Below are positions 2,087 to 23,115 of a DNA stretch of 24,000 nt, in pieces; positions within the stretch are counted from its first letter, which is position 1; each line of letters starts with the position of its first letter. The position numbers were made by a program, and so were the translations under genes. The stretch is taken from NCBI RefSeq assembly GCF_006265115.1, contig NZ_SMDR01000003.1, positions 323,694 to 347,693 of the forward strand, written 5' to 3'. This stretch comes from Arenimonas terrae (GTDB lineage: Bacteria > Pseudomonadota > Gammaproteobacteria > Xanthomonadales > Xanthomonadaceae). The notes beneath the pieces are model-generated. The model was not told the origin of the DNA. It did no database searches and saw only the letters and a program-made list of their open reading frames with translations.

Positions 2087-2087
2087 G

Positions 2088-2861
2088 TCACATTCCCAGC
2101 ACCGACGGAACGCGCGACGTAGCGTCCCGGAACAGCCGCGCGAACGCGGCCGGCATGGCCCCGAGCGAGGATGCCGTCAGAATCATCGCAACGAACACCT
2201 TGAGCGGCAGGGCCAGGAAGTAGACATTCGCTTGCGGCATCGAGCGTGTCGCATAGGCAACACCGACGTCTATCGCGAAGAGGCAGAGAACCGTGGGCGC
2301 GGCGACCATCAGACCCAGGAGGAAGCTCGACCCCACCATGGACAAGAATGCGCTTGCATCCAGGTAGACGCTCGACCCGGCGAAGGGAAGCACTTCCGCG
2401 CTGACTACCAGGCCTGCGTAGAGGTCCAGATGAAGGTCCATGGTGAAAAATAGGGTCGTGGCCAACAGCAGAAGTGCCGCTCCAAGCGGCGACTGGGCAT
2501 CACCCTGCGAACCGGGATCGAACAATGTCGCTGAGCCAAGGCCCGCCTGAACGTCGATCACCCAGCCGGCCGTATGCACCGCAGCCATTGGAAAGGCCAC
2601 GGCGGCTCCAAAAGCCGTTCCGATCGCCAGCTCACTTAGCGCAGCGATCGTCCAGGCCACCGGCCCGCTCAGGTCAGCGGGTATCGCCGCGGGCGATGAC
2701 GCCAGAACCGTCAGCCAGGCTAGGCTCAGAACCACGACGATACGAATCAGAGGCGGCGCCCAACGCATCGGGGACAGGGGCGGAATGGCAACGACGGGGA
2801 TGTATCGGATCACGGCGAGCAGGAACATCCCCATCGCTCCCTCGACATGCTGCATGTTCAC
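2088..2861 (-). CDS. sctT: Type III secretion export apparatus protein SctT (FliR/HrcT family)
   Basis: 257-aa polytopic membrane protein in the canonical position between sctS and sctU. GTG 2861 overlaps the sctS stop (GTGA); alternative ATG at 2855. Confidence 0.8.
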   Translation of the reverse strand: MNMQHVEGAMGMFLLAVIRYIPVVAIPPLSPMRWAPPLIRIVVVLSLAWLTVLASSPAAIPADLSGPVAWTIAALSELAIGTAFGAAVAFPMAAVHTAGWVIDVQAGLGSATLFDPGSQGDAQSPLGAALLLLATTLFFTMDLHLDLYAGLVVSAEVLPFAGSSVYLDASAFLSMVGSSFLLGLMVAAPTVLCLFAIDVGVAYATRSMPQANVYFLALPLKVFVAMILTASSLGAMPAAFARLFRDATSRVPSVLGM

Positions 2862-3121
2862 AGCCGGCCCGCCAGTTCGAACATCTGGCGCGACAGGTCG
2901 ACCGCCACCGACATCATCCAGCTTCCGAAAGCGAGACAGATGCCCATGAGGACAATCAGCTTCGGAACAAAGGTCAGGGTCATTTCCTGGATCTGTGTGA
3001 CCACTTGGACGATTGAAACGAGCACTCCCACAACCAAAGTTGCCAGCAGCAGCGGCATAGATATCTTCGCGGCGGCCAATAGGGTGTCCGCTAGCAGGCG
3101 GATGGCGAGATCGGAGTCCAC
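2858..3121 (-). CDS. sctS: Type III secretion export apparatus protein SctS (FliQ/HrcS family)
   Basis: 87 aa, two hydrophobic helices. VSIVQVVTQIQEMTLTFVPKL matches the FliQ/SctS Q-x-TQIQE-x-T/L-x-FVPK motif. GTG start 8 nt after the TPR gene stop. Confidence 0.85.
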   Translation of the reverse strand: MDSDLAIRLLADTLLAAAKISMPLLLATLVVGVLVSIVQVVTQIQEMTLTFVPKLIVLMGICLAFGSWMMSVAVDLSRQMFELAGRL

Positions 3122-3129
3122 TGCGGCAC

Positions 3130-4275
3130 CTAGTCTTTCCGTCGTGATGCGTACGCGGAGGACAGCCTTTGAGCGATGAGTTTCAGGGATGGCCCCCCCG
3201 GGATGCCCGCTTTGGCGAGGATCGCCGCAAACATCCGCTCGGCCCGGCCGGTGTCACCACGGGCGCTTTCGAGCAGCGCTTTCGCCAACATTGCGGTTAT
3301 TGCGGTTGGGTCGAGCCTGAGTGCTATGGAGAGGTGCTGCTCGGCTTGTTCCTCGTCGCCTCGCAGCGTGGCTACCAAAGCCAGTCCTCCGTGGCTGTCA
3401 CCGAAGTTCCGCTCCGCCTCACGGGCGCGGCGGTAGCTCAGCTCGGCCGCGTCCAGGTTCCCCTGCAGAAGTTGCGCCCAAGCAAGCGCATGCAGCGTTC
3501 CCACATGCCGAGGCATGATGCGCGCCGCCGCTGAGAGCAGTTCCTCGGCGCGCGCGAAATCGGCTCTTGCCAGCGCGATTTCACCACTTCCGAACAGCGT
3601 CCGGCCCGACGCCGGGTATCGGCGCAGTATCCGCTCATGCAGTCGTTCGGCCGATTCCAGCTCGCCTTCCCAGCGGAAGATCGTTGCGACGGTGACCAAT
3701 GCTTCGTGCTGGTTCGCGTCCCTGCTCAACGCCGCGACCGCGTCGGCCCGAGCATCTGCCAATCGGTTGCTGTCGAGCATGGCGATTGACTTCACGCCTA
3801 GCGTGGTCGGATTCCCGGGATCCCGTGTGAGCGCGGCCTCGACGCATGCGATGGCTTTCTCCAGCTCATCCGTAGCCATGTGTATCCTGGCTTTCAGGAC
3901 GAGCAGGTCGGTGCTCTCTCCAAACCTTTCGAGCGCCTCCGAAACCAGCTTCATCGCCGCGTCTGAGTCACGGATGCAGAAGAGGGCGTGCGCCCGGTCG
4001 TGCTCAAGCCAAGACGCCTGTACACCCTCCGAGCGCAGCGCTTCGTACTCGGAAATGGCTTCGTGGAAACGGCCGCGCGCAAGGGCCGACCGGGCCACGC
4101 GCACCCGGATTTCCGGCAGGGAACGGATCTCCGCCGGCACCGAGCACAGCAGCTCCGCCGCTTCGCGATAGGAAGCGTCACGAAAAAGGTCGTCGGCGAC
4201 CTCGCCGACGAGCTTTGGATTGGCTGGGTCGCGCTCAAGCAGGGAGCCCAGCGCGCTGGTTGCGGTTTGGTTCAC
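3130..4275 (-). CDS. TPR-repeat protein (381 aa from GTG 4275) sitting where sctR is normally found
   Basis: The track ORF 3130..4557 would overlap the AraC gene by 190 nt. GTG 4275 is the most upstream in-frame start outside that gene, preceded by GAAAGAG 8 nt upstream. The sequence is a series of Ala/Leu/Arg-rich ~34-aa helical repeats (e.g. LHALAWAQLLQGNLDAAELSYRRAREAE, AEQHLSIALRLDPTAITAMLAKALLE), typical of TPR. Confidence 0.7.
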   Translation of the reverse strand: MNQTATSALGSLLERDPANPKLVGEVADDLFRDASYREAAELLCSVPAEIRSLPEIRVRVARSALARGRFHEAISEYEALRSEGVQASWLEHDRAHALFCIRDSDAAMKLVSEALERFGESTDLLVLKARIHMATDELEKAIACVEAALTRDPGNPTTLGVKSIAMLDSNRLADARADAVAALSRDANQHEALVTVATIFRWEGELESAERLHERILRRYPASGRTLFGSGEIALARADFARAEELLSAAARIMPRHVGTLHALAWAQLLQGNLDAAELSYRRAREAERNFGDSHGGLALVATLRGDEEQAEQHLSIALRLDPTAITAMLAKALLESARGDTGRAERMFAAILAKAGIPGGPSLKLIAQRLSSAYASRRKD

Positions 4276-4334
4276 GTGCGGATCTCTTTCGACAGCGTCG
4301 TTCCGGCGATCGAATGCGGCAGGCGTTGTTTCAT
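4272..4334 (-). other. 20-codon upstream ORF (MKQRLPHSIAGTTLSKEIRT) whose TGA overlaps the GTG start of the TPR gene
   Basis: ATG 4334..4332; stop TGA 4274..4272 overlaps GTG 4275..4273 (GTGA). Lies in the 92-nt AraC-TPR intergenic region. No evidence that it is translated. Confidence 0.2.
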
Positions 4335-4367
4335 CTCGAACAAGCGTCTCACGAGCGCAGGTTTTTT

Positions 4368-5261
4368 TTACCGCCGTTTGTCTGCCGTGTTTGTCTTCTT
4401 CGAGGCGACTGTGTTCGCTCCTACCAGCTTTCGGACCGTCGGTGATGGCATGGAGCGTTCGTCGCTTGGACGCTTTCCGAACGTCCGCCGATACATCCGG
4501 CCGAAGCTCGCGCAGTTTTCGAAACCGCACTCCACGGCGATCCGCTTCACAGGCCAATCGGTCGTTCTCAGGAGAGCGCAGGCATGCTGTGCGCGGAGCC
4601 GGATGGACGCCTCCTGCGGACTCTCTTCATAAATCTCCAGAAACTGCCGCGACAGATACCACCGCGAGAAGTTGGTTAGAGCTGAAAGCTCTTCGAGCCG
4701 CACCACCCGGTGCCGGTTTCCATCGAGCATCAACCGCGCGCGCTGCATCCGCGCGAACACTCTCAGCCGGCTAGCGGCCGACCGACCGGGGCAACGCGCG
4801 ATGCTGGCGTCATGGCACCGCGCCAGCGGCGCGAGCGCGAGAAGCATCTCCGTCGCGGCCTGAGCCTCGGGCAGCCGGCCGGCGGCGCCCACCCGCCACA
4901 ACGCCACGATGCGGCGACGCGCCGCCAGGTCGAAGCGTCCCCGGCCCGGCACGATGCCGAGCTCCCGGGCCTGCCGCGCCCACCGGCCCGAAAGGACAAC
5001 GCCTATCAGGACGCCGAGGCTGTTTCCGAGGATCTTCTGCGAAGGACTGCGATCCAGGACCAGCCATTCGCCCGGATCAAGGGCGAACTGACCCTCTCGG
5101 GCCCGAAGATGGCCGCCGCGCCGGACTTGCAGCCAGATCGACAGCTCCCCGCCCGTACCATCGAGCTCACTCTCATTCCGACCTGCAACTGCCCAAGCAA
5201 TATCCGGACTCCGCGAGCCGCTCCCGGCCAGCGACATCAGCTTGCTGCGTCCCAACTCCAT
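4368..5261 (-). CDS. AraC/XylS-family transcriptional regulator at the edge of the T3SS cluster
   Basis: 297 aa. C-terminal double HTH region: VRLEELSALTNFSRWYLSRQFLEIYEESPQEASIRLRAQHACALLRTTDWPVKRIAVECGFENCASFGRMYRRTFGKRPS. GAGGGG lies 6 nt before the ATG. AT-rich putative promoter region upstream. Confidence 0.85.
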   Translation of the reverse strand: MELGRSKLMSLAGSGSRSPDIAWAVAGRNESELDGTGGELSIWLQVRRGGHLRAREGQFALDPGEWLVLDRSPSQKILGNSLGVLIGVVLSGRWARQARELGIVPGRGRFDLAARRRIVALWRVGAAGRLPEAQAATEMLLALAPLARCHDASIARCPGRSAASRLRVFARMQRARLMLDGNRHRVVRLEELSALTNFSRWYLSRQFLEIYEESPQEASIRLRAQHACALLRTTDWPVKRIAVECGFENCASFGRMYRRTFGKRPSDERSMPSPTVRKLVGANTVASKKTNTADKRR

Positions 5262-5284
5262 GTCTCGCCCCTCTGAACCAAAGG

Positions 5285-5400
5285 GGTCCGTATGCCGGGC
5301 GCCCGTCCGGACGACATGAAAGACGGAAGAAATAACTAGAAAATTAAGCTTCTTTTTTTATTTTCTTTTGCAATCAACGAATTAGCTACGGACATGAGAC
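5285..5400. other. AT-rich junction between the lower-GC T3SS segment and high-GC core DNA; probable promoter region of the AraC gene
   Basis: aaagacggaagaaataactagaaaattaagcttctttttttattttcttttgcaatcaacgaattagc is far more AT-rich than anything else in the window. Composition steps from about 60% to about 70% GC across it (hand counts of single lines). Confidence 0.6.
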
Positions 5401-8053: not shown

Positions 8054-8069
8054 TGCAGCTTCCGTGCCA
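8054..8069 (-). promoter_or_regulatory. Sigma54-type -24/-12 promoter candidate P1 (TGGCACGGAAGCTGCA)
   Basis: Minus strand reads CCG TGGCAC GGAAG CTGCA. One mismatch to TGGCAC-N5-TTGC (C for T). Predicted +1 near 8043, about 20 nt before the PA2169-family ATG. Nearly identical to P3. Confidence 0.6.
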
Positions 8070-11199: not shown

Positions 11200-11215
11200 A
11201 GCAAGAGCGGTGCCA
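11200..11215 (-). promoter_or_regulatory. Sigma54 promoter candidate P2 (TGGCACCGCTCTTGCT), exact consensus
   Basis: Minus strand reads GCCGC TGGCAC CGCTC TTGCT TCC. Predicted +1 near 11189, giving a ~150-nt leader before the lipoprotein ATG. Lies in the divergent region shared with the EBP gene. Confidence 0.7.
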
Positions 11216-11341
11216 GCGGCCGCGCCGTCGGTAAGTTTTACCGGCCCGGAAAGGCTTTCCTGGTCGCGGCGGGAATCGGCGGTTTTTTTAACTGTGGGTT
11301 AACCGTTGAGGTGCACACTACGGCTCCGTCGGAGGCTGCCC

Positions 11342-12724
11342 ATGACCGAGCAACAGACACTGTTCATCGTCGACGACGACGTTGGATTCGTTCACGCCGC
11401 CGCCGAGCTGGCGCGCGAGCAGGGTTTCATCATCACCGTGGCCGGCAGCGTCGAACAGGCGCTGACGCGGCTCAAGGACACCAGCTTCGACGTCGCGCTG
11501 ATCGACCTGTCGCTGCCCGACGGCAGCGGGCTGGAGCTGCTCGAGCACCTGGACCTGGGCGGAAGCACCCAGGTCATCCTGATCACCGGCCATCCCACCG
11601 TGGAATCGGCGCTCAAGGCGATGCACCTGCCGATCGTCGACTACGTGGTCAAGCCGCTGCGCGCGGCCCAGTTCACCGACCTGCTGCAGTCGGCGGCGAA
11701 GCAGCGCCGCGTGGTCGGCACGCAGGGCGAACAGTGGCACGGCCTGGCCGGGCCCTCGGCGGCGATGGCCGACGTGCGCCAGCAGATCTGCCGCGTGGCG
11801 CCGACCGACGCTTCGGTGTTCATCGAAGGCGAAAGCGGCGTGGGCAAGGAGCTGGTGGCCGGCGCGATCCATGCCGAGAGCGGACGCACCGGACCCTTCG
11901 TCGCGCTCAACTGCGGCGCCGTGCCGGCCGAACTGCTCACCAGCCAGCTGTTCGGGCACGAGCGCGGCAGCTTCACCGGCGCCAACAGCCGCCACGTCGG
12001 CCTGTTCGAGCAGGCGCAGGGCGGCACCCTGTTCCTGGACGAGCTGACCGAGATGCCGATCCACCTGCAGGTGCACCTGCTGCGCGCGCTCGAGACGCGG
12101 ACCATCCGCCGGGTCGGCGGCAGCGAGGACATCCCGGTGGACGTGCGGGTGATCTCGGCCACCAACCGGCCGCATGCCGAGGCGATCGAGGCGGCGAAGC
12201 TGCGCGAGGACCTGTACTACCGGCTGGCCGAATTCCCGATGACCCTGCCCTCGCTGCGCGAGCGGCCGGAGGACGTGCTGCCGATCGCCGACCTGTTCCT
12301 GCAGCGCCTGAACGAGCGCTACGGCACCCGCCGCGCACTGTCGAAGGAAGGCGCCGACCGCCTGCAGCGCTACAGCTGGCCGGGCAACATCCGCGAGCTC
12401 AAGAACATCATCCAGCGCTCCTACATCCTGGCCGACGGCGACCTGATGACGCCGACCCTGCCCACCGGCAACGCACGCCCGCTGGCGGAAACCGAAAGCA
12501 CAATCACCTTCGCGGTCGGAACGCCCATGCACGAGATCGAAAGGCGCATGCTGTTCAAGACCCTGGCCTTCTTCGAGAACAACAAGGCCAAGGCCGCGCA
12601 GGCCCTGGGCGTCACCACCAAGACCATCTACAACCGCCTCACCGCCTACCAGTCGTCCAACGAACCCAGGGAGCGCACCGATGAACGCCCCGACACGCCG
12701 TCTCGATGCGAAACCGGCACCTGA
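11342..12724 (+). CDS. Sigma54-dependent response regulator (REC + AAA+ sigma54-interaction + Fis-type HTH), NtrC family
   Basis: ATG 11342 with GGAGG 6 nt upstream. REC: LFIVDDDVGF..DVALIDLSLPDGSG. Walker A GESGVGKE. Sigma54-contact loop as GSFTGA. LFLDELTEMP, RVGG, RVISATN, REDLYYRL. C-terminal HTH AKAAQALGVTTKTIYNRL. Confidence 0.9.
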   Translation: MTEQQTLFIVDDDVGFVHAAAELAREQGFIITVAGSVEQALTRLKDTSFDVALIDLSLPDGSGLELLEHLDLGGSTQVILITGHPTVESALKAMHLPIVDYVVKPLRAAQFTDLLQSAAKQRRVVGTQGEQWHGLAGPSAAMADVRQQICRVAPTDASVFIEGESGVGKELVAGAIHAESGRTGPFVALNCGAVPAELLTSQLFGHERGSFTGANSRHVGLFEQAQGGTLFLDELTEMPIHLQVHLLRALETRTIRRVGGSEDIPVDVRVISATNRPHAEAIEAAKLREDLYYRLAEFPMTLPSLRERPEDVLPIADLFLQRLNERYGTRRALSKEGADRLQRYSWPGNIRELKNIIQRSYILADGDLMTPTLPTGNARPLAETESTITFAVGTPMHEIERRMLFKTLAFFENNKAKAAQALGVTTKTIYNRLTAYQSSNEPRERTDERPDTPSRCETGT

Positions 12725-12959
12725 AGGCCTGGCGGTGTCGCGCCCGCCACCGGGTGAGCTGGTGACGATCCCTCGCCAGGAGCTGCAGGCCCTGGTGCAC
12801 GACATCCGCAACCACCTCAATTCCATGCTGATGAACGCCGGAGTTCTGGCGGTGCAAAGCCGCGCCAATCCGTCGTCGGCCCGCCATGCCGCCCAGCTCG
12901 AGGACGACGGCGAGAAATGCGCCCAGGCGCTGCGGAACCTGTCCGACCGCTATCTGTGA
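12681..12959 (+). CDS. 92-aa stand-alone H-box (DHp-like) protein; candidate phosphotransferase or kinase modulator
   Basis: ATG 12681 with AGGGAG 7 nt upstream; overlaps the EBP gene 3' end by 44 nt and ends 13 nt before the kinase ATG. High third-position GC in this frame. LQALVHDIRNHLNSMLMNAGVL resembles the kinase H-box (LATLSHELRNPLAALMASVEVL). It is followed by a second predicted helix and no ATPase domain. Confidence 0.55.
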   Translation: MNAPTRRLDAKPAPEGLAVSRPPPGELVTIPRQELQALVHDIRNHLNSMLMNAGVLAVQSRANPSSARHAAQLEDDGEKCAQALRNLSDRYL

Positions 12960-12972
12960 CCGCGGCGGGCGA

Positions 12973-15900
12973 ATGAGCTTCCCCGAGTTCTTCCGCACGC
13001 TCAGCCAGCCCATCAGCCGACTCAGCCTCACCGGGTGGCGGGCCTATGTCTTCGCCGCCGCGATGATCCTGGGCGCGGTGGTCGTGCGCTGGGCGCTGCC
13101 CGAGGGCCTGGGCTCGCGCGTGCCCTTCCCGACCTTCTTCCTGGCCGTGTTCCTGTCGGCCTGGGTCGGCGGCTGGCGCGCCGGCCTGCTGGCCTCGGCG
13201 CTCACCATCGTCTGCGGCGTCACCGTCTTCCCGATCACCCGTCCGCCCTGGGACTGGCGCGACCTGGTTGCGCTGGGCTTCGTGTTCGCGGTCTGCGTGG
13301 TGGGCGCCTACGCCTGCGCGCGGCTGCGCGCGTCCACCGACGTGATCGAGAAGGACCGCGGCTGGTACGAACGCATCCTCGACCGCGTCGGCGAGGCGGT
13401 GCTGGTGGTGGACGACGCTGGCCGCCTGCGCTATTTCAACAGCCACGCCGCCGGCCTCTGGGCGCTGGACGCCAGCCACCTCGACCGTGACGTCGGCCTG
13501 GCGGTGGTGCTGTGGCACGAGGGCCGCGACGCGCCCTTCGACGGCCTGGGCGAGCTGATCCGCGACAACGAGGGCAGCTGGGAGCTTCCGCTGGGGCTGG
13601 AGGTGCGCGCCGGTGCGCGGCGGGTGCCGGTCGTCGGCAGCGTCTCGCGCGTCCGCGACCCCGACTACGGCGACGCGGCCGTGGTGTCGGTGCAGGACAT
13701 CCACGCCCTGCGCGAGGCCACGCGCCGGATCGAGGCGACCGAGCGGCGCATGCGTGCGCTGTTCGACTCCGACATCGTCGGCCTGTTCAGCATCGATGGC
13801 CGCGGCCGCATCAGCGCCATGAACGACGGCATGCGCCGCTTGCTGGGTTACGGCGCCGACGCCGGCTCGCCGGAGGCGCTGGCGCAGATCGCCGACGAGG
13901 ACCTGCTGTCGCAGCTGGGCGTCGACGGCACCGAAAACGCGATCGCCTTCGGTCCCTTCGACTGCCGGCTGTCGGGCCCCTCGGGTGAAGTGTGGGTGTC
14001 GCTGGGCGTGGTGCCGATCACGCCGCGCGAGCGCATGGTCTTCGCCATCGACATCGGCGCCCGCAAGCGCGCCGAAAGCGCGGTGGACAGCAGCGAGGCG
14101 CGCTTCCGGCAGCTGGCGGAGGCGTCCGCGGCAGTGGTCTGGCAGGCGCGGGCCTCGGGCGCGCTGACCGCGCAGATCGGCTGGAGCGAATTCACCGGCG
14201 CGCCGCCGCTGGCCTCGTTCGACCAGTGGCCCGACTGGGTGCACCCGGCCGACCAGGACGCGGCGCGGCAGCTCGTGCAGGCGCTGCACACCCAGCGCGA
14301 CGGCGTCGAGGCCGAGCTGCGCTTCCGCCATGCCTCCGGCGACTACCGCCATGTCGGCGTGCGCGGCGTGGTGCTCGACGGTCCGGCCACCGGCGCCATC
14401 GAATGGATCGGCACCCTGCGCGACATCCACCAGCGCCGCCAGGCCGAGGAGGCGCTGGCCTCGAAGGAAGTCGAGCTGCGCCTGATCCTCAACGCCATGC
14501 CGGCGCGCATCGCCTACATGGATGCGGACGCGGTGTTCCAGTGGGCCAACGGCAACTTCACCCAGTGGTTCGGGGTTGCCGGCGACGTCAAGGGCCGGCC
14601 GCTGGCCGAGGTGCTGCCGCCCGACGCGGTGTCCACGCTCTACCGCTCGCTGCAGGTGGCGCGGCGCGGTTTCGTCAGCCAGCAGGAGTGGCTGGAGAAT
14701 CACCCCACGCTGGGCCTGCGCTGGACCACGACCACGTTTTCGCCGGACCTGGACGAACGCGGGCGCGTGCGCGGCGTGATCAGCCTGTGCATGGACAGCA
14801 CCGACCGCCACGAGGCCGAGGACGCGCTGCGGCGCAGCGATGCCGAACACCGCACCCTGGCCGAGAACGTGCCGCACATGGTCTGGATGTCCGACGCCGA
14901 GGGCCGGCTGCAGTACTGCAACGCGCGCTGGCACGAGTTCACCGGCCAGGACTCCAGCGGCCGCTGGACCGACCCGGCGCACCCCGCGGACCGCCAGGCG
15001 GCCGAAGCGGCGCTGCAGCAGGCCGCGCAGTCGCGCACCGAGCTCAACATCGAAGTGCGCTACTGCCGCGCCACCGACGGCGCCTTCCGCTGGCACCTGG
15101 TGCGGGCGCTGCCCCTGCTCGATGGCGAGGACCGCGTACTGCGCTGGTACGGCACCTGCACCGACATCGAGGACCAGCGCATCGCCCAGGAGACGCTGCG
15201 CGAGGCGCATTCGCGCACCACGCATTTCCTGGCCACGCTCAGCCACGAGCTGCGCAATCCGCTGGCGGCGCTGATGGCCAGCGTCGAGGTGCTCGAGCAC
15301 GCTGCGCTGGACGAGAACCGCCGCTTCGAGGTCCGGCAGGCGATCCAGCGCCAGGCGTGGCACCTCAAGCGCCTCACCGACGACCTGCTCGACATCTCGC
15401 GCATCACCCTGGGCAAGATCCAGATCAGCAGCGACACCATCGACCTGCGCGAGGTCTGCCAGCACGTGTGCCGGGACTTTTCCGAGAAGGCCCAGCGCCA
15501 CGAGGTCGAACTGGACTGCGACGTGCCCGACGATCCGATCCTGGTCAACGGCGACCCTTCGCGCATCCGCCAGTGCGTGGACAACCTGGTGTCGAACGCG
15601 ATCAAGGCCAGCATGCCGGGCATGCGCGTGCACGTCTCGACGCGCGTGGCCGAACGTTTCGCCGAGATCATCGTGCGCGACGAAGGCGTGGGCATCGAGC
15701 AGGACGCGAAGGCGACGATCTTCCTGCCCTTCTCGCAGGCCGACGACTGGCGCAACCGGGGCCTGGGCCTGGGCCTGAGCATCGTCAGCAAGCTGGTGGA
15801 GCTGCACGGCGGCTCGGTCTGGGTGGACAGCGACGGCCGGCACTGCGGCGCCACCTTCGGTATCCGGCTGCCGGTGGCCAAGGGCGGCGCGGCGGCTTCC

Positions 15901-16335
15901 GCCGCGCCGCCGGCGGACGAGCCGGCCCGGTCGGCCGAGAGCCTGGTCGGCAAGGTGTTGATCGTCGAGGACGAAACCGACAACGCGGTCGCGCTGCAGT
16001 ACCTGCTGGCGCTGGAGGGGCACGACGTGTCGGTGGCCGAGGACGGCGTCGCGGCGATCGCGCTGGCCGAATCGCTGCGGCCGGACGTGGTGATCTGCGA
16101 CCTCGGCCTGCCGCCGCCGCTGGACGGTCTGCAGGTGGCGAAGCGCCTGCGCGCGGCGCGCGGCGACGACATCCATCTGTGCGCATACAGCGGCTACGGC
16201 TCGCGCGAGGACGTGGCGCGCTCGCTGGCGGCGGGCTTCGACACCCATCTCACCAAGCCGGCGACGCCGCGGGCGATCGCCGCCGAGATCCTGCGCGGGT
16301 TGGGGCGGGTAATGGCTTCGCGAAGCGGCAAATAG
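12973..16335 (+). CDS. Hybrid sensor histidine kinase: N-terminal multi-TM (DUF4118-like) region, multiple PAS/PAC domains, HisKA, HATPase_c, C-terminal REC
   Basis: ATG 12973 (M30 of the track ORF) lies just after the small ORF's stop. Hydrophobic N-terminus GWRAYVFAAAMILGAVVVRWAL... Repeated PAS/PAC signatures (e.g. RFRQLAEASAAVVWQA, EHRTLAENVPHMVWMSDAEGRLQYCNARW, FRWHLVRALPL). H-box LATLSHELRNPL. G-boxes RDEGVGI and GLGLGLSIV. REC: KVLIVEDETDN..DVVICDLGLP..HLTKP. No HPt (HxxKG) domain seen. Confidence 0.9.
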   Translation: MSFPEFFRTLSQPISRLSLTGWRAYVFAAAMILGAVVVRWALPEGLGSRVPFPTFFLAVFLSAWVGGWRAGLLASALTIVCGVTVFPITRPPWDWRDLVALGFVFAVCVVGAYACARLRASTDVIEKDRGWYERILDRVGEAVLVVDDAGRLRYFNSHAAGLWALDASHLDRDVGLAVVLWHEGRDAPFDGLGELIRDNEGSWELPLGLEVRAGARRVPVVGSVSRVRDPDYGDAAVVSVQDIHALREATRRIEATERRMRALFDSDIVGLFSIDGRGRISAMNDGMRRLLGYGADAGSPEALAQIADEDLLSQLGVDGTENAIAFGPFDCRLSGPSGEVWVSLGVVPITPRERMVFAIDIGARKRAESAVDSSEARFRQLAEASAAVVWQARASGALTAQIGWSEFTGAPPLASFDQWPDWVHPADQDAARQLVQALHTQRDGVEAELRFRHASGDYRHVGVRGVVLDGPATGAIEWIGTLRDIHQRRQAEEALASKEVELRLILNAMPARIAYMDADAVFQWANGNFTQWFGVAGDVKGRPLAEVLPPDAVSTLYRSLQVARRGFVSQQEWLENHPTLGLRWTTTTFSPDLDERGRVRGVISLCMDSTDRHEAEDALRRSDAEHRTLAENVPHMVWMSDAEGRLQYCNARWHEFTGQDSSGRWTDPAHPADRQAAEAALQQAAQSRTELNIEVRYCRATDGAFRWHLVRALPLLDGEDRVLRWYGTCTDIEDQRIAQETLREAHSRTTHFLATLSHELRNPLAALMASVEVLEHAALDENRRFEVRQAIQRQAWHLKRLTDDLLDISRITLGKIQISSDTIDLREVCQHVCRDFSEKAQRHEVELDCDVPDDPILVNGDPSRIRQCVDNLVSNAIKASMPGMRVHVSTRVAERFAEIIVRDEGVGIEQDAKATIFLPFSQADDWRNRGLGLGLSIVSKLVELHGGSVWVDSDGRHCGATFGIRLPVAKGGAAASAAPPADEPARSAESLVGKVLIVEDETDNAVALQYLLALEGHDVSVAEDGVAAIALAESLRPDVVICDLGLPPPLDGLQVAKRLRAARGDDIHLCAYSGYGSREDVARSLAAGFDTHLTKPATPRAIAAEILRGLGRVMASRSGK

Positions 16336-16353
16336 TCGCGCCCGCGGCCGGAC

Positions 16354-16369
16354 TGGCACCGACCTTGCA
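16354..16369 (+). promoter_or_regulatory. Orphan sigma54 promoter candidate P6 (TGGCACCGACCTTGCA), exact consensus
   Basis: GAC TGGCAC CGACC TTGCA GCC begins 19 nt after the kinase TAG (16333-16335). Predicted +1 near 16380. No credible ORF downstream before the convergent SDR gene. Confidence 0.6.
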
Positions 16370-16434
16370 GCCTTCTCCCGGAGGGCGGTGCCTGCGGCCC
16401 GCGCTCCGCGGCGCGCCGGCTACCGGCGGCCGTG

Positions 16435-16469
16435 GCCCCCGGGGCGGCGTTCGAGGCCGCCCCCGGGGC
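16435..16469. terminator. GC-rich stem-loop between convergent kinase and SDR genes (possible bidirectional terminator, no U-tract)
   Basis: gcccccggggcggc-gttcgag-gccgcccccggggc: 8 bp + 1-nt bulge + 4 bp. Ends 5 nt before the SDR stop codon. Confidence 0.45.
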
Positions 16470-16473
16470 AACT

Positions 16474-17334
16474 TCAGGTGGACAGGTGGGCGCCGCCGTT
16501 CACGTGCAGGATCTGCCCGGTGATGAAGCTGGCGTCTTCGCTGGCCAGGAAGACGAAGGCCGGCGCGATCTCCGCCGGCTGGCCGGCGCGGCCGACCAGG
16601 GTGTCGGAGCCGAAGCTCGCGACCTTCTCCGCGTCGAAGCTGGCCGGGATCAGCGGCGTCCACACCGGCCCCGGCGCGACCGCGTTGACGCGGATGCCGC
16701 GGTCGGCGACGGCCTGGGCGAAGGACAGCGTCATCGCATTGATCGCGCCCTTGGTGCCGGCGTAGTCGAGCAGGGTCTTGTGGCCGCGCACGCCGGTGAT
16801 CGAACTGGTGTTGAGGATCACGCCGCCACGCCCGAGATGGTCCAGCGCCGCCACGGTCGCCATGTAGTAGGTGAGCACGTTGGTGTCGAAGGTCTCGCGC
16901 ACCTGGTCTTCGTCCAGTTCGGCGGGATCCTCGACCGGATGCTGCTCGGCGATGTTGTTGACCAGGATGTCCAGGCCGCCGAGGCGCCGGGCCGCCTGCG
17001 CCACCGCTTCGGTGGCCGCACCCGCAAGCGCGAGATCGCCGGGCATCCGCAGGCAGCGCCGGCCTTCCTTCTCCACCAGGCGTGCGGTCTCGCGCGCGTC
17101 GGCGTCCTCTTCCAGGTAGGCGATGGCGATGTCGGCGCCTTCGCGGGCGAAGTGCACGGCGATCGCGCGGCCGATGCCGCTGTCGCCGCCGGTGATGAAG
17201 GCGCGCCGGCCCTCGAGCTTGCCGCTGCCGCGATAGCCCTCGCGGATGGTGACGGGGCGCGGATGCATCTGCATCTGCTCGCCCGGCTGCGTGTCCTGGT
17301 GCTGGGCGGGCTGCAGTTTCTTCTTTTCCTTCAT
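16474..17334 (-). CDS. Short-chain dehydrogenase/reductase, YghA / general-stress-protein-39 (YdaD) type
   Basis: 286 aa. GKLEGRRAFITGGDSGIGRAIAVHFAREGADIAIAYLEEDADARETARLVEKEGRRCLRMPGDL closely follows the YghA/YdaD N-terminal pattern. NNIAEQ, IRVNAVAPGPVWTPL. AGGAAGG upstream of the ATG. Confidence 0.85.
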   Translation of the reverse strand: MKEKKKLQPAQHQDTQPGEQMQMHPRPVTIREGYRGSGKLEGRRAFITGGDSGIGRAIAVHFAREGADIAIAYLEEDADARETARLVEKEGRRCLRMPGDLALAGAATEAVAQAARRLGGLDILVNNIAEQHPVEDPAELDEDQVRETFDTNVLTYYMATVAALDHLGRGGVILNTSSITGVRGHKTLLDYAGTKGAINAMTLSFAQAVADRGIRVNAVAPGPVWTPLIPASFDAEKVASFGSDTLVGRAGQPAEIAPAFVFLASEDASFITGQILHVNGGAHLST

Positions 17335-17362: not shown

Positions 17363-17578
17363 TCAGTCGCCGACCAGGGAATGCACGCCGGCGTCGAAGT
17401 ATTCGGCGGGGATGATCCGGCGCGCCTCGGGCGCGACGATCAGCTGTTCCAGGCAGCCCATGGCGGTGGCCGCGAATCCGCCATGGCCTTCGGCCGTGGC
17501 GAAGATCACCAGGTGGGCCAGCGCCTCGATCGCATCGGCGGCGGCGTCGGGCAGCATCTGCGCTTCCTTCAGGCTCAT
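17363..17578 (-). CDS. Hypothetical 71-aa protein, first gene of the SDR operon
   Basis: ATG 17578 with GGAG 6 nt upstream; predicted P3 start is ~21 nt upstream. MSLKEAQMLPDAAADAIEALAHLVIFATAEGHGG... No family recognised. Confidence 0.45.
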   Translation of the reverse strand: MSLKEAQMLPDAAADAIEALAHLVIFATAEGHGGFAATAMGCLEQLIVAPEARRIIPAEYFDAGVHSLVGD

Positions 17579-17609
17579 GGCGTTCTCCGTCGGGGGACAA
17601 CGGAGGGCT

Positions 17610-17625
17610 TGCAGCATCCGTGCCA
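17610..17625 (-). promoter_or_regulatory. Sigma54 promoter candidate P3 (TGGCACGGATGCTGCA)
   Basis: Minus strand reads GCGCA TGGCAC GGATG CTGCA AGCC, 15/16 identical to P1. Predicted +1 near 17599. Confidence 0.6.
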
Positions 17626-17653: not shown

Positions 17654-17669
17654 CGGCACCGCAATTGCT
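17654..17669 (+). promoter_or_regulatory. Sigma54 promoter candidate P5 (CGGCACCGCAATTGCT)
   Basis: GGCACCGCAATTGCTTCC is 16/18 identical to P2 (GGCACCGCTCTTGCTTCC). One mismatch (C for the first T). Sits back-to-back with P3, about 30 bp away. Confidence 0.45.
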
Positions 17670-17770: not shown

Positions 17771-17786
17771 TGGCATGTGCATTGCT
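17771..17786 (+). promoter_or_regulatory. Sigma54 promoter candidate P4 (TGGCATGTGCATTGCT)
   Basis: GGCG TGGCAT GTGCA TTGCT TCG. One mismatch (TGGCAT, which I recall as a tolerated variant). Predicted +1 near 17797, 57 nt before the BON-protein ATG. Confidence 0.65.
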
Positions 17787-17853
17787 TCGTTACCTAAGCG
17801 AATGGGTCCCCCGGCTCATTCCATCCCCCCGAGCAAAGCTGAGGAGAGACGTA

Positions 17854-18828
17854 ATGAACCAGCGTTATGGAAATCCGCAGGACGGCCGCAGCCGCAACGA
17901 GGACCCCAGCGGCGGCCGTTCCCGCCAGGGCAACGATGAGGGCGACTGGGGCGGCCGTGGCCAGGGCGGCCAGTTCAGCCGCGGCGGCCAATACAACCCC
18001 GACGACCAGTACAACGGCGGCGATCGCGGCTACGACGATCCGGGTCGCAACCCCGGTTCGCGCGGCCCCGGCGAACACTACCTGCGCGAATGGGCCGGCC
18101 CGGGCGGGCGCGGCGGCCGCCAGGACTACGGCAGTCAGGACTTTGGCGCTGGCCGGGACTATGGCAGCCAGCGTGGTTACGGCAGCCAGGACCCGGGCCG
18201 CAGCTACATGACCTCCATGACCTCGGGTTCTCACGGCTACGGCAACCAGGGTTTCGGCAACCAGGGCCACGGCAACCGCAACTACGACAACCAGGGGTAT
18301 GCCGGCGACCAGGGCGGCGGCTACTACAGCGGCCAGTCGCAGGACGGCCGCCGGGGCTTCGCCCAGGGCCCGCAGAACTTCGGCCAGTACGAAGGCGGCT
18401 ACGGTGGCGAGGACTTCGGCGGCCCGTCGGGCAGCCAGTCCGGCGCGCAGTACGGAAGCCGCAGCGGCGCCCAGCCGCAGAGCTTCCGCGGCAAGGGCCC
18501 GAAGGGCTACAAGCGCTCCGACGAGCGCCTGCAGGAAGACCTCAACGAGCGCCTGATGGACGACGACTACATCGACGCCAGCGACGTGACGGTGCAGTGC
18601 CGCGATGGCGTCGTGACGCTGGAGGGTTCGGTGACCGACCGGCGCATGAAGCACCGCATCGAGGACCTGGCCGAACGCTGCCAGGGCGTGCAGGACATCC
18701 AGAACCGCATCAGCGTCAAGCGTGGTTCGCAGGGCGGCCGCCCGGACGCCGACGACGAGGATTCCGGCGCGGCCGGCTCCTCGGCCCGCGGCAACGAAGG
18801 CTCGAATCAGCCCAAGAAAAAGCACTGA
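17854..18828 (+). CDS. BON-domain protein with ~210-aa G/Q/Y/N/S/R/D-rich low-complexity N-terminal region
   Basis: ATG 17854 with AGGAG 7 nt upstream. Low-complexity region has repeated [DG]YGSQ / GYGNQ / GFGNQ units. It is followed by GKGPKGYKRSDERLQEDLNERLMDDDYIDASDVTVQCRDGVVTLEGSVTDRRMKHRIEDLAERCQGVQDIQNRISV, a typical BON domain with its usual KGPKGY.RSDERI lead-in. Confidence 0.8.
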   Translation: MNQRYGNPQDGRSRNEDPSGGRSRQGNDEGDWGGRGQGGQFSRGGQYNPDDQYNGGDRGYDDPGRNPGSRGPGEHYLREWAGPGGRGGRQDYGSQDFGAGRDYGSQRGYGSQDPGRSYMTSMTSGSHGYGNQGFGNQGHGNRNYDNQGYAGDQGGGYYSGQSQDGRRGFAQGPQNFGQYEGGYGGEDFGGPSGSQSGAQYGSRSGAQPQSFRGKGPKGYKRSDERLQEDLNERLMDDDYIDASDVTVQCRDGVVTLEGSVTDRRMKHRIEDLAERCQGVQDIQNRISVKRGSQGGRPDADDEDSGAAGSSARGNEGSNQPKKKH

Positions 18829-20236: not shown

Positions 20237-20314
20237 TCCGCGGCTCCAGCATAGGTCGCGTGGCGTCCGCTGGCGATGACCTGCCAGATCATGGCGGCGG
20301 GAACGTGTCCATGC

Positions 20315-21202
20315 TTATGCGGCGGGCCGGTGCACGGTGATGTGTGCGGCGACGCAGGTCCACCGTCCATCTCTCCTTACCCAGACGTCGGTGTATCGAT
20401 TGACCCCGGAGCGGCCGTCCTTGAGGAGATAGGCGTTTTCGGCGTGGACCAACGCAACATCGTTGAAGCGGCGGATATTGACCTTGTCCACCGGGAACGC
20501 GCTGATTTGCGTGGCGTAGGTAGGTTTCGCGAAATCGGTCAGCGCGACCGCCCTGTCGTAGAAGGATCCGTCGCCGTTCACGACCAAATAGTCTGGCGAA
20601 AGGTGCGCGCCGTACCAGGCGACGTCGGCGTCTCGGAACGCTTGCACGTAGCTTTCGTTGAGTTCGCGAAGCGCCGCTGGATCGTCATCGTGATGCCAGG
20701 CCCCTTCCCAGGGGCTATCTGGCGTGGCTAATGCCGTCTGCAGCGCAAGCCCGACGCCGGGCAGTATGGATGTACTCTGCGTGCTGACCAACCGCCAACG
20801 CGACCCGCTCCATACGTACACTTCGCTGTTGCGGACATTTTCGACTTCGCCGGTCGCGCTGGTGATGCGGGCGGTGGAGTGAAGCAGCGCGACCGGTCCG
20901 AACACGCGCACGCGAATATCGTTGTACGAAAGCCCGCGGTGCCGAGACTCTTCGGCCGTCCGCACGAGGAAGGCATCCCGGTCCAGCCACCGTCCATCGT
21001 CGGTGGTCTGCAGGAAGTCTGGAGCTACCAGTTCCCTGAAGAAGCGGCTGTCGCCCAGTCGACGGGCATCGGCCATCTTTTGGGTCAACGCGCGCAGTTG
21101 TACTTCTGCCAACGCTTCGGTGGGGGCGTCAACGGTGTCGCTGGCTTCGGCGAGAAGTCCGGTGACGACGAGCAGTGGCGCAATCAGGCCGATCGAGTTC
21201 AT
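20315..21202 (-). CDS. Secreted protein with two tandem NTF2-like (DUF4440/SnoaL-like) domains
   Basis: Signal peptide MNSIGLIAPLLVVTGLLAEA/SD. Each half ends in the W-R/K-hydrophobic-x-x-H/Q pattern typical of DUF4440 (GSRWRLVSTQST; DGRWTCVAAHITV). Start is ATG 21202 (GAGG upstream) or GTG 21211. Confidence 0.6.
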   Translation of the reverse strand: MNSIGLIAPLLVVTGLLAEASDTVDAPTEALAEVQLRALTQKMADARRLGDSRFFRELVAPDFLQTTDDGRWLDRDAFLVRTAEESRHRGLSYNDIRVRVFGPVALLHSTARITSATGEVENVRNSEVYVWSGSRWRLVSTQSTSILPGVGLALQTALATPDSPWEGAWHHDDDPAALRELNESYVQAFRDADVAWYGAHLSPDYLVVNGDGSFYDRAVALTDFAKPTYATQISAFPVDKVNIRRFNDVALVHAENAYLLKDGRSGVNRYTDVWVRRDGRWTCVAAHITVHRPAA

Positions 21203-21220
21203 GTCTGTCACCTCATGGGG

Positions 21221-21487
21221 TCAGTGGCGCTTGGGATCAGCTCGCCACGCCGGCATGGTCGCCAACAGCGCCCTCGCCATTTCCCGAGCCACGCCGGCAT
21301 CTAGATCCTGCTGGCGGATGAAGTAGTCCGCGTTCGCGCGCAGTACCTCGTCGTAGGGCTTGAGTTCGCCGGAATCGTCGCCGCAGGTGGAGCAGTAAAG
21401 CGCTCCGATCCGTCCGCCGGCGAAGTCTTCCGGGGTCCGCATCGGAAAGCCGCAGGATCCGCAGGACGGGCAATAGGGTTCGGACAT
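21221..21487 (-). CDS. Putative zinc-ribbon domain protein (88 aa)
   Basis: MSEPYCPSCGSCGFPM..GALYCSTCGD: CxxC...CxxC arrangement like the putative zinc ribbon family, which I recall as often found next to regulators. Confidence 0.6.
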   Translation of the reverse strand: MSEPYCPSCGSCGFPMRTPEDFAGGRIGALYCSTCGDDSGELKPYDEVLRANADYFIRQQDLDAGVAREMARALLATMPAWRADPKRH

Positions 21488-21496
21488 GGCGGTCTC

Positions 21497-22102
21497 TCAG
21501 GGACGGACGAAGTCGAGGAACTGCGCTTTGAGTTCGGCGCCTCGGGCGCGGATTACGCTGGCATCGGGCGCCAGCAGATCGCGGTTCATCAGGAAGTGGT
21601 TCGTCCAAGCGATCCAGAGGTTGGAAAGCGCGGCCGAGCTGCCAGCGCGGACTGTTCCTGTCGCCAGATCGCGTTCATGGGCTTCGCGCAGGCGCCAAGC
21701 CACTCCCGCCTGTAGCGCAAAAACCCGCGCCCGCGCCGCGAGCGGAAGAGTCGAGGCTTCCCGGAGAAGGCAGGCATAGAGCACTTCATGTTCCGCCAGA
21801 GCGAGCAGATGCGCGTCCAATACTTCGCTCAACGTCGGGGTGTCGCTGGGCATTTCAGCCAGCCGCCGCGACATCTCGCGGCCCACCTCCTCCACGAGTT
21901 CGGTTACCAGCGCGTCGCGAGTCTGGAAGTGTACGAATACCGTGCCGTGGGCCTTCCCGGTCTCCTTCGCAATTGCTGCCGTGGTCGTTCCGGCGAAACC
22001 ATGGACGGCTACCATTCGCAGTCCCGCTTCTAGAAGCTGCCGGCGGGTGTTTTCGCGTTGCCGCTGCCGGCTCTGGCCTCGGGGTGTCGCTTGGATAGTC
22101 AT
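21497..22102 (-). CDS. TetR/AcrR-family transcriptional regulator
   Basis: 201 aa. N-terminal HTH: TRRQLLEAGLRMVAVHGFAGTTTAAIAKETGKAHGTVFVHFQTRDAL. ATG overlaps the upstream gene's stop (ATGA, 22099-22102). Confidence 0.85.
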   Translation of the reverse strand: MTIQATPRGQSRQRQRENTRRQLLEAGLRMVAVHGFAGTTTAAIAKETGKAHGTVFVHFQTRDALVTELVEEVGREMSRRLAEMPSDTPTLSEVLDAHLLALAEHEVLYACLLREASTLPLAARARVFALQAGVAWRLREAHERDLATGTVRAGSSAALSNLWIAWTNHFLMNRDLLAPDASVIRARGAELKAQFLDFVRP

Positions 22103-23049
22103 GGCTTGTCGCTCAATGAGCTTTTGCTCATTTTAATTGGGGCATGGGTGCAAAGCGCGGTTTGGGTTCCACGCGACAAATCCGGCGCATCCGCCGCAAC
22201 ACTGGACAAGCCAACCGATGTAGGCGGGTGATCGCCAAAGGTCGTGGCATGCTGGACCGACGCAGCGCCGCAGCCGTCAATGTCGGGCACGATGCCAGTG
22301 CCCCCCGCTATCACGCCGGTCACGGGCGACACTGGCAGCAAAGCCGTCGCGACATGAAGCAGTGGGTTCGTGGGGAAGCGTTTTAGAAGAACCGCCAGCG
22401 GTTCGTCCGGCGCTGGTTCTGACCCCCTACCGCCTTTGACGGACTGCCGATGCGGCAGGGACGCTCGGGCGACATCTTCGATCACGACTAGGGCATTCCC
22501 TGCCCCGTAGATGGACGAGATGGGTGGGCCAAGCAGCATCCAGAGGATCGTTGCGCTCATCAGGCCCATGATCCGAGCGGTGCGGCGCCACAGCGCCGGG
22601 AGCGCCACCGTCGGCGGATCTGGAGTGACCACTGTCGCCCCCCGGAGTGATTCAGCGTTTTCGAGCGCGGTACGGGCGGACAAGGGAGCCTCGGCGACCG
22701 TCGCGCCAGAGGCGAGCCTGCTGACTGGCGCCAGCAGGCGATAACCATGCTTGGGGATGGTCTGGATGTAGTCCTTGCGCTTACGGGCATCGAACGCCTT
22801 CCGCAGCACGGCCACAGCCTGGGTCAGCACTTCGTCGTTGGGCAGCGTGCCCGCCCAGACGCGTTCCATCAGCGTCTCTCGGCTCACCACGCGCCCGGCG
22901 TGCTCGGCCAGCAGGAGCAACACGCCTTGCGCCTTAACGGTGATGCGAACAGGCGCCCGATGTCCCTTCGCCTCCGAGACTTCCCGGAGGGCCAAATCCA
23001 CGATGAAGTCGCCTATCCGAAGCCGGTGGTCAGCGCGCCGGCCTGTCAT
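22099..23049 (-). CDS. ToxR/CadC-like membrane-anchored regulator: N-terminal OmpR/PhoB-type winged helix, one TM helix, uncharacterised C-terminal region
   Basis: LRIGDFIVDLALREV..ITVKAQGVLLLLAEHAGRVVSRETLMERVWAGTLPNDEVLTQAVAVLRKAF..YIQTIPKHGYRLLAP is a Trans_reg_C domain. TM: IMGLMSATILWMLLGPPI. The last ~130 aa have no recognisable domain and contain the internal TetR promoter/operator. No SD before ATG 23049. Confidence 0.65.
   Translation of the reverse strand: MTGRRADHRLRIGDFIVDLALREVSEAKGHRAPVRITVKAQGVLLLLAEHAGRVVSRETLMERVWAGTLPNDEVLTQAVAVLRKAFDARKRKDYIQTIPKHGYRLLAPVSRLASGATVAEAPLSARTALENAESLRGATVVTPDPPTVALPALWRRTARIMGLMSATILWMLLGPPISSIYGAGNALVVIEDVARASLPHRQSVKGGRGSEPAPDEPLAVLLKRFPTNPLLHVATALLPVSPVTGVIAGGTGIVPDIDGCGAASVQHATTFGDHPPTSVGLSSVAADAPDLSRGTQTALCTHAPIKMSKSSLSDKP
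22115..22135 (-). promoter_or_regulatory. Candidate TetR operator O1 (AATGAGC-N4-GCTCATT) overlapping a TAAAAT -10-like hexamer
   Basis: Perfect 7-4-7 palindrome at 22115-22132, 13 nt upstream of the TetR ATG. Minus strand reads TTAAAATGAGCAAAAGCTCATT. The 11-mer TAAAATGAGCA recurs at 23105-23115. Confidence 0.55.
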
Positions 23050-23086
23050 TGAAGAGAGGTGGAACGGGTCATTATCTTAGATGACA

Positions 23087-23115
23087 ACCAACTCACTGAG
23101 TTGGTGCTCATTTTA
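23087..23115 (-). promoter_or_regulatory. Operator/promoter region upstream of the CadC-like gene: 9-bp-arm palindrome plus O1-like site O2
   Basis: ACCAACTCA-C-TGAGTTGGT (23087-23105). actgagttggtgctcatt (23095-23112) is 14/18 identical to O1. Shared TAAAATGAGCA on the minus strand. A GATAAT -10-like hexamer lies at 23071-23076. Confidence 0.5.

Follow-up and report, generated by a model that had tools for sequence, protein, structure and literature searches.

The 138-nt gap between two convergent genes of Arenimonas terrae, one encoding a hybrid PAS sensor histidine kinase and the other an SDR oxidoreductase, probably holds a small, lineage-restricted non-coding RNA gene, which would be read on the plus strand from its own sigma-54 promoter. 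We give this reading a probability of about 0.55. The gap lies in a stretch of 24,000 nucleotides of contig NZ_SMDR01000003.1 (positions 323,694 to 347,693, hereafter the window), which was compared with related loci. On the best reading the small RNA (sRNA) family is new and the arrangement in which it stands is already known from CrcZ and NrsZ in Pseudomonas. A preliminary description of the window, made from its letters alone, had proposed a sigma-54-dependent sRNA at the 3' end of the kinase operon. The relatives lend this proposal comparative support, namely a promoter found in all seven copies, a first hairpin in fixed register with it, covarying stems, an assignable strand and U-rich tails in two of the copies. 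It suffers from the fact that the copy in the window itself has no conserved loop.

The promoter motif has its GG and GC dinucleotides exactly 10 bp apart, as in the consensus TGGCAC-N5-TTGCW. It begins at the 19th nucleotide after the kinase stop codon (TAG, 16333-16335), where the preliminary description had placed it, with 18 nt in between. Exact matches to TGGCAC-N5-TTGCW occur twice in the window against 0.03 expected, and matches with one mismatch six times against 0.67 expected; in neither case did any of 100 shuffled sequences reach the observed number. Chance origin of the motif at 16354 is excluded, since the motif is enriched in the window and the same element stands at the same place in six distinct relatives. 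Downstream of four other sigma-54 sites of the window come a short leader, then a Shine-Dalgarno motif and an ATG; only at 16354 does a strong site have no gene to serve. An enhancer-binding protein (EBP) is available in the same operon, where the first gene (11306-12724) encodes a protein with Response_reg, Sigma54_activat and HTH_8 domains. That this protein acts at 16354 we infer from the adjacency of the genes.

Kinase orthologues with 47% to 85% identity were collected by scanning genome and metagenome collections and by protein search. The window kinase is a rare protein, and the closest relatives found for the window are Arenimonas metagenome-assembled genomes. Seven distinct loci bear the element, the window and the loci L001, L009, L014, L015, L016 and L021; L010 and L011 repeat L009, and the contigs L002 and L020 end at or inside the element. 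In the six other carriers, 4-18 nt separate the kinase stop from the sigma-54 motif; beyond the motif come about 65-140 nt of structured spacer and then a GC hairpin next to the SDR stop. The motif reads TGGCGCGGGGCTTGCA in L009 (kinase 85% identical to that of the window), TGGCATCCGCCTTGCA in L001 (81%), TGGCAGGCGCCGTGCA in L014 (77%), TGGCAGGCGCCGTGCT in L015 (71%), TGGCACGCGGTTTGCA in L016 (66%) and TGGCACGGGGTTTGCA in L021, the kinase of which is close to that of L016. With the motif as anchor, all seven copies agree in TGGC and TGC, and there is not a single invariant column in the N5 spacer, in the 22 nt upstream or in the 10 nt downstream. Further downstream, conservation resumes at the base that forms the foot of hairpin 1 (HP1), and its distance from the -12 element is constant over the seven copies (spacing 11-12 nt). 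Among six copies checked, HP1 starts 0-2 nt after the predicted +1. This is the pattern that a working -24/-12 promoter with a fixed start site would be expected to leave.

In the window, the predicted +1 (16380) was placed 12 nt past the C of the -12 GC, and the 3' end at or just after hairpin 3 (HP3). The 101 nt from the predicted +1 fold into three hairpins with a minimum free energy of -75.4 kcal/mol, as compared to -62.5 +/- 4.2 kcal/mol for shuffled sequences (z = -3.1; 0/200 as stable). The two small hairpins that had been seen in the letters, CCGCG-CTC-CGCGG and GCCGG-CTA-CCGGC, are both present. The large stem-loop that had been put at 16435-16469 indeed has this span, and its distance to the SDR stop codon (16474-16476) is corrected from 5 to 4 nt.

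The preliminary description had also proposed to look for covariation in the region, and compensatory changes are in fact present among the seven related copies. Since the MAFFT alignments A2 to A6 mis-register HP1 and hairpin 2 (HP2) in some rows and split the L016 promoter, we used a hand-registered pair table and an alignment fitted to a covariance model. L016 and L021 carry an insertion of about 70 nt in their HP1 loop; it was trimmed before the model was built, and the input was thus manipulated. In the model-fitted alignment, 91.9% of the cells pair as compared to 83.6% in shuffles, 12 pairs are changed on both sides as compared to 6.0, and the covariation score is 0.287 as compared to 0.165; none of 500 shuffles reached any of these values. 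When the 3' partners were slid by 1-3 columns as a control, 36-53% of the cells paired and no more than 4 pairs were changed on both sides. With five copies in an independent MAFFT alignment as input, RNAalifold returned the same three hairpins with 8 of 37 pairs compensatory. The hand-registered table shows the changes. HP1 pair 2 is G:C, G:U or A:U across the family, and HP1 pair 3 takes four forms (U:A, U:G, C:G and A:U, the last in the window). The HP2 stems switch between GGAAC/GUUCC, CCGGGC/GCCUGG and CCGGGGC/GCUCCGG, including A:U to G:C exchanges, and the lone non-pair is an A·G in L001 and L009. Taken together, the covariation statistics give good support, not proof, for a three-hairpin RNA structure.

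The transcript was assigned to the plus strand because of three features. Read on this strand, the paired columns contain G:U in 13 cells and A·C in none. In all seven copies, the stability of HP3 is higher on the plus than on the minus strand. In L016 and L021, where about 17-20 nt separate HP3 from the SDR stop, a U-rich tract comes after HP3 on the plus strand (ACUUCUUUCC in L016, ACUUUUUCC in L021), and nothing U-rich follows on the minus strand.

The HP1-loop insertion that sets the L016/L021 lineage apart (L016 4407-4474; L021 about 11030-10962, minus strand) holds a C/U-rich, anti-Shine-Dalgarno-like stretch, CCCCUUCCUCCC, and a CCCU-GCGA-AGGG hairpin. MAFFT aligned the C/U stretch with CCTTCTCCC at 16371-16379 of the window, just 5' of the predicted +1.

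Promoter, HP1, HP2 and HP3 occur together in the seven carriers. Motif and hairpins are all absent from L004, L006, L012, L013, L017 and L018, in which the synteny of kinase and SDR gene is intact and only 5-50 nt separate the stops; the contig of P0046 has a gap of 21 nt after the SDR gene. From this all-or-none co-occurrence it follows that promoter, HP1-3 and the terminator-like stem were gained or lost together, which speaks for their being parts of one gene. In a neighbour-joining tree built from the C-terminal halves of the kinases, the carriers form three subclades with non-carriers interleaved between them; at least two losses or several gains are implied.

Within the RNA, conservation is highest in the apical loop of HP2, which is C-rich and 10-11 nt long. 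It reads ACCCCUCGUC in L001, L009, L014, L016 and L021 and ACUCCCUCGUC in L015, that is in six of the seven copies. By its composition, it could pair with G-rich, Shine-Dalgarno-like sequences. The motif is absent from the element of the window and occurs nowhere in the window beyond chance. In a global alignment, window and L009 are homologous over the full length of the element (identical in 116 of 163 columns), and a deletion of about 13 nt in the window removes the loop, the probable business end of the RNA. The window allele still has HP1, HP3, the base of HP2 and a perfect promoter. A covariance model for which five relatives were used, and L009 was left out, found the untrained L009 copy with 63 bits (E = 1.4e-7).

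Several observations weigh against an sRNA gene in the window. The HP2 of the window is without the loop of its family and has GCCGG-CUA-CCGGC in its place, and the covariance model scores the window copy at 21 bits only (E = 0.32), over 16412-16476. The complement of the loop, GACGAGGGG, sought as a target, is found nowhere else in the 183 kb of loci and occurs below chance in the window. HP3 of the window truly lacks a U-tract, as the preliminary description had said, though the organism has canonical U-tract terminators at other places, for example at 23198-23175 (minus strand). No upstream activator-binding motif common to the other sigma-54 promoters was found. A search for palindromic dyads and enriched 7-mers upstream of 31 regulon promoters gave no motif that is also present at the orphan sites, the dyad and 7-mer signals reflecting orthology or divergent start codons only; loci with the element conserve the final 200 nt of the kinase gene no better than loci without it. 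The distribution on the kinase tree is patchy: of the sisters L016 and L012, only the former has the element, and L018, which lacks it, sits next to the carriers L014 and L015; the element thus appears to be dispensable, or to have been lost or gained repeatedly. Conservation in relatives that keep the flanking genes, another check that had been proposed, therefore has two sides: the absence from several of them counts against a gene, and in favour of one, the module is missing as a whole or not at all, and three subclades contain it. Finally, the covariation was counted over seven related sequences in an alignment itself fitted to the covariance model and is indicative, not proof.

The absent U-tract bears in particular on an antisense or interference promoter, the second option of the preliminary description, which we consider unlikely. 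Here, transcription would read through HP3 and damp the SDR operon in cis, by polymerase collision or by pairing with its mRNA, as a brake within the regulon. The promoter does face the SDR operon, which has a sigma-54 motif of its own, and with HP3 so near the SDR stop the two RNAs would overlap at least over the hairpin. An interfering transcript would have no need of covarying HP1 and HP2 stems or of a conserved apical loop, the U-rich tract of L016 and L021 is placed as for a terminator ahead of the SDR gene, and six relatives run the same convergent operons without any element.

Equally improbable in our estimate is that the hairpins are a structured 3' untranslated region or terminator of the kinase operon, serving the stability of the mRNA 3' end or giving rise to a processed fragment, and that the sigma-54 site fires rarely or never. 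With the element 4-18 nt past the kinase stop, read-through from the operon would include it, and CrcZ, too, arises by processing of a cbrB read-through transcript in addition to its own initiation (PMC5113210). The lack of an upstream activator site fits a silent site as well. This explanation keeps its weight because conserved sigma-54 sites without an obvious gene are common in E. coli, where most sigma-54 sites hold inactive holoenzyme and many of these are conserved (PMC4591121). It is opposed by the fixed 11-12 nt from the -12 element to the HP1 foot, as a genuine start site would predict, and by the joint gain or loss of promoter and hairpins. Moreover, relatives without the element have no terminator hairpin, which means that the operon needs none there.

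Slightly less probable still is a decaying relic. A module inserted once in an ancestor, be it the captured promoter and leader of a lost gene or a former sRNA gene, would be eroding, its similarity among relatives would owe more to recent descent than to selection, and the window copy would be dead. Patchy presence among close relatives and the loss of the conserved loop from the window agree with this, and erosion does happen in this locus: at 17654, in the place of a RES-domain gene of relatives, stands what looks like a relic promoter. There, however, the -24 T is already gone; the site at 16354 is still an exact match to the consensus. Decay is also at odds with TGGC and TGC being kept while adjacent bases diverged and kinase identity fell to 66%, and with compensatory changes that maintain pairing in all three stems. 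A portable sigma-54 sRNA cassette of promoter, three hairpins and terminator, precisely inserted or excised between convergent genes of a single regulon and acting mainly in cis, with a parked closed complex and the hairpins insulating the kinase from the SDR operon while both are firing and the RNA a by-product or second function, would explain why the unit comes and goes, why the window keeps promoter and HP3 without the loop and why no activator site is evident, and is nonetheless the most improbable of these readings.

Other identities for the element were tried and rejected. A scan of the window against Rfam 15, which comprises the described RNA families and should include CrcZ, NrsZ and the Xanthomonas sRNAs, gave no match at the gathering score, and the elements of L001, L009, L014, L015 and L016 gave no match at E <= 1, which speaks against a known RNA family. 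A tRNA or tmRNA origin of the GUUCGAG loops was dismissed, as ARAGORN finds no such genes in the window and the closing pairs are unfit for a T-arm. A repeat (REP- or MITE-like) was discarded too: HP3 occurs once in the window, and across 183 kb the covariance model hits only the syntenic copy of each locus. A small protein was rejected as well. There is no codon-position GC bias over 16321-16440, neither start codon nor frame is conserved, and 1-nt indels in the HP3 arms shift the frame. The putative start codon is AUG in L009 and L016, GUG in L001, L014 and L015 and ACG in L021, and the conserved HP2 loop falls in different reading frames among the copies. The open reading frame (ORF) at 16388-16765 had earlier been judged not credible, and rightly so: its third-position GC content (GC3) is high only since its third positions coincide with those of the antisense SDR gene.

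Returning to the sRNA gene, we infer its transcription, activator, 3' end, targets and trans-acting mode, as follows. RNA polymerase with sigma-54 would sit on TGGCAC-N5-TTGCA as a closed complex. An activated EBP would open the promoter, the likeliest candidate being the NtrC-type response regulator encoded at the head of the operon, once phosphorylated via the hybrid PAS kinase. Transcription would start near 16380 and run to HP3 or shortly past it, giving a three-hairpin RNA of about 90 nt. This RNA would be produced together with the surrounding sigma-54 stress genes and form the non-coding arm of their regulon. In the relatives, the working part is probably the C-rich apical loop of HP2, which may pair with G-rich, Shine-Dalgarno-like mRNA or bind a protein. 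The loop-deleted allele of the window would be a crippled copy, or act via another part of the RNA.

The features of the window are listed in Table 1.

Table 1. Element, flanking genes and neighbouring sigma-54 sites in the window.
Feature	Position	Strand	Basis or remark
Sigma-54 site	8054-8069	-	upstream of DUF2383 protein
Sigma-54 site	11200-11215	-	upstream of operon ending in ABC1 kinase (Transgly_assoc + ABC1-kinase)
NtrC-family response regulator / sigma-54 enhancer-binding protein (EBP)	11306..12724	+	Pfam: Response_reg, Sigma54_activat, AAA_lid_14, HTH_8
92-aa ORF	12681-12959	+	ORF between EBP and kinase
Hybrid PAS sensor histidine kinase	12973..16335	+	Pfam: DUF4118, PAS domains, HisKA, HATPase_c, Response_reg
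Non-coding gap, 138 nt	16336-16473		between kinase stop and SDR stop
Sigma-54 (-24/-12) promoter element TGGCACCGACCTTGCA, TGGCAC-CGACC-TTGCA	16354..16369	+	exact consensus match
Predicted primary transcript (candidate sRNA, about 90 nt)	16380..16473	+	fold, homology to L009 element
Hairpin 1 (HP1), GGAG-G-GCGG ... CCGC-G-CUCC	16380..16407	+	begins at predicted +1
Hairpin 2 (HP2), truncated allele, GCCGG-CUA-CCGGC on lower stem	16408..16433	+	fold
Hairpin 3 (HP3), 13-bp GC-rich terminator-like stem-loop	16435..16469	+	fold; -33.8 kcal/mol
Convergent SDR oxidoreductase (adh_short_C2)	16474-17334	-	Pfam; stop codon 16474-16476
72-aa ORF	about 17363-17581	-	first gene of SDR operon; 5' untranslated region with Shine-Dalgarno sequence and ATG
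Sigma-54 site	17610-17625	-	upstream of 72-aa ORF and SDR gene
Putative relic promoter CGGCACCGCAATTGCT	17654-17669	+	aligns with L009 promoter TGGCACCGCTCTTGCT ahead of RES-domain gene
Sigma-54 site	17771-17786	+	upstream of BON protein
BON/OsmY-like protein	about 17839-18828	+	

The EBP gene is the first of the operon that ends just upstream of the element, and among the NCBIfam equivalogs none reaches its cut-off with the EBP. For the kinase, the longest ORF begins at 12886; we set the start at 12973 because the database protein P0001, which is 100% identical to the window kinase, has 1120 aa. The SDR gene is the second of its operon. Between EBP and kinase lies an ORF of 89-99 aa that overlaps the end of the EBP gene. 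Counterparts are found in L009 (1065-1343) and L021 (14826-15104, minus strand) and also in L012, L013, L014, L015, L016 and L018, and gene callers predict it in every orthologous locus with enough sequence. It has no match in Pfam or NCBIfam and may be a third component of the two-component module. Within the receiver domain of the kinase, the block CTGTGCGC(C/A)TACAGCGGCTACGG (window 16174-16196; columns 40-64 of alignment A7) encodes LCAYSGYG and is near-invariant in nucleotides, most third positions included, in 11 orthologues with and without the element. This near-invariance probably results from codon bias and protein constraint and is not specific to carriers of the element.

The sigma-54 regulon of the window comprises DUF2383, a DUF892-like protein, the 72-aa protein with the SDR, the BON/OsmY-like protein and the Transgly_assoc and ABC1-kinase operon. 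In the relatives (L021 4788-16588; L020; L019), genes for RES-domain, hemerythrin, entericidin, DUF4142 and PNPOx-like proteins are added, and OtsA/OtsB and MscS lie near. By its gene content, this dense and apparently uncharacterised regulon resembles a general-stress set of the RpoS type, or a dormancy set, placed under sigma-54. At 17654, a RES gene is missing from the window, and about 100 nt further on comes the BON promoter; the site looks like a relic promoter in which the -24 T is already mutated. The GC content of the window is 68%. Its segments 1-5300 and 20300-23100, which include a TetR regulator, a Trans_reg_C regulator and a SnoaL/DUF4440 protein, have ORFs with a GC3 of about 0.69-0.79 as compared to 0.91-0.96 in the central genes, and may have been acquired horizontally.

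The arrangement of the element has precedents. In Pseudomonas aeruginosa, NrsZ sits in the gap where ntrC and PA5126 meet tail to tail, has an RpoN promoter in front of it and is induced by NtrB/C (PMC4253122). The element has the same gene layout, and the RpoN promoter of NrsZ, TGGCAC-N5-xTGCA, is alike. However, there is no similarity in sequence or structure, and NrsZ is processed into repeated stem-loop units, in contrast to the three different hairpins found here. CrcZ follows directly downstream of cbrB, is transcribed from a CbrB/RpoN promoter and ends at the same terminator as the cbrB transcript (PMC5113210). Like the element, the CbrB- and sigma-54-dependent CrcZ and CrcY have a sigma-54 promoter right behind the gene of a two-component regulator; their terminator is in common with the upstream operon, as HP3 would be here, which makes them 3'-UTR-type (3' untranslated region) sRNAs with a promoter of their own. 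CrcZ, unlike the element, is about 400 nt long and has A-rich motifs that sequester Hfq/Crc. The RNA of the element, with about 90-185 nt, 75-83% GC, no A-rich motifs and a conserved C-rich loop, would not belong to the CrcZ family. MicL and DapZ are sRNAs encoded at the 3' end of a gene and transcribed from a promoter of their own. They resemble the proposed sRNA gene in having a stress-regulon promoter and a terminator shared with the upstream mRNA, and in forming a non-coding arm of a regulon. The element differs in that its promoter stands after the stop codon, not within the coding sequence, and is of the sigma-54 type, which needs an ATP-dependent activator. With the orphan and intragenic sigma-54 sites of E. 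coli and Salmonella, the element shares a conserved consensus -24/-12 motif without a protein gene downstream (PMC4591121). Unlike these sites, it is intergenic and combines a covarying RNA structure with a terminator-like hairpin at the correct distance, all of which travel as a unit.

The element represents no new principle of regulation. If our reading is true, it would be a previously undescribed sRNA family in Arenimonas-like Lysobacteraceae. To our knowledge, almost no riboregulators have been studied experimentally in this group. It would also be the third clear case, after CrcZ and NrsZ, of a sigma-54-dependent sRNA encoded behind its probable two-component controller, which would suggest a recurring design rule and not a peculiarity of Pseudomonas. 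The full element of the relatives, the loop-deleted allele of the window and the clean absence from other loci form a natural allelic series and thus a ready-made experiment. The element would further provide a handle on a dense, uncharacterised sigma-54 stress regulon.

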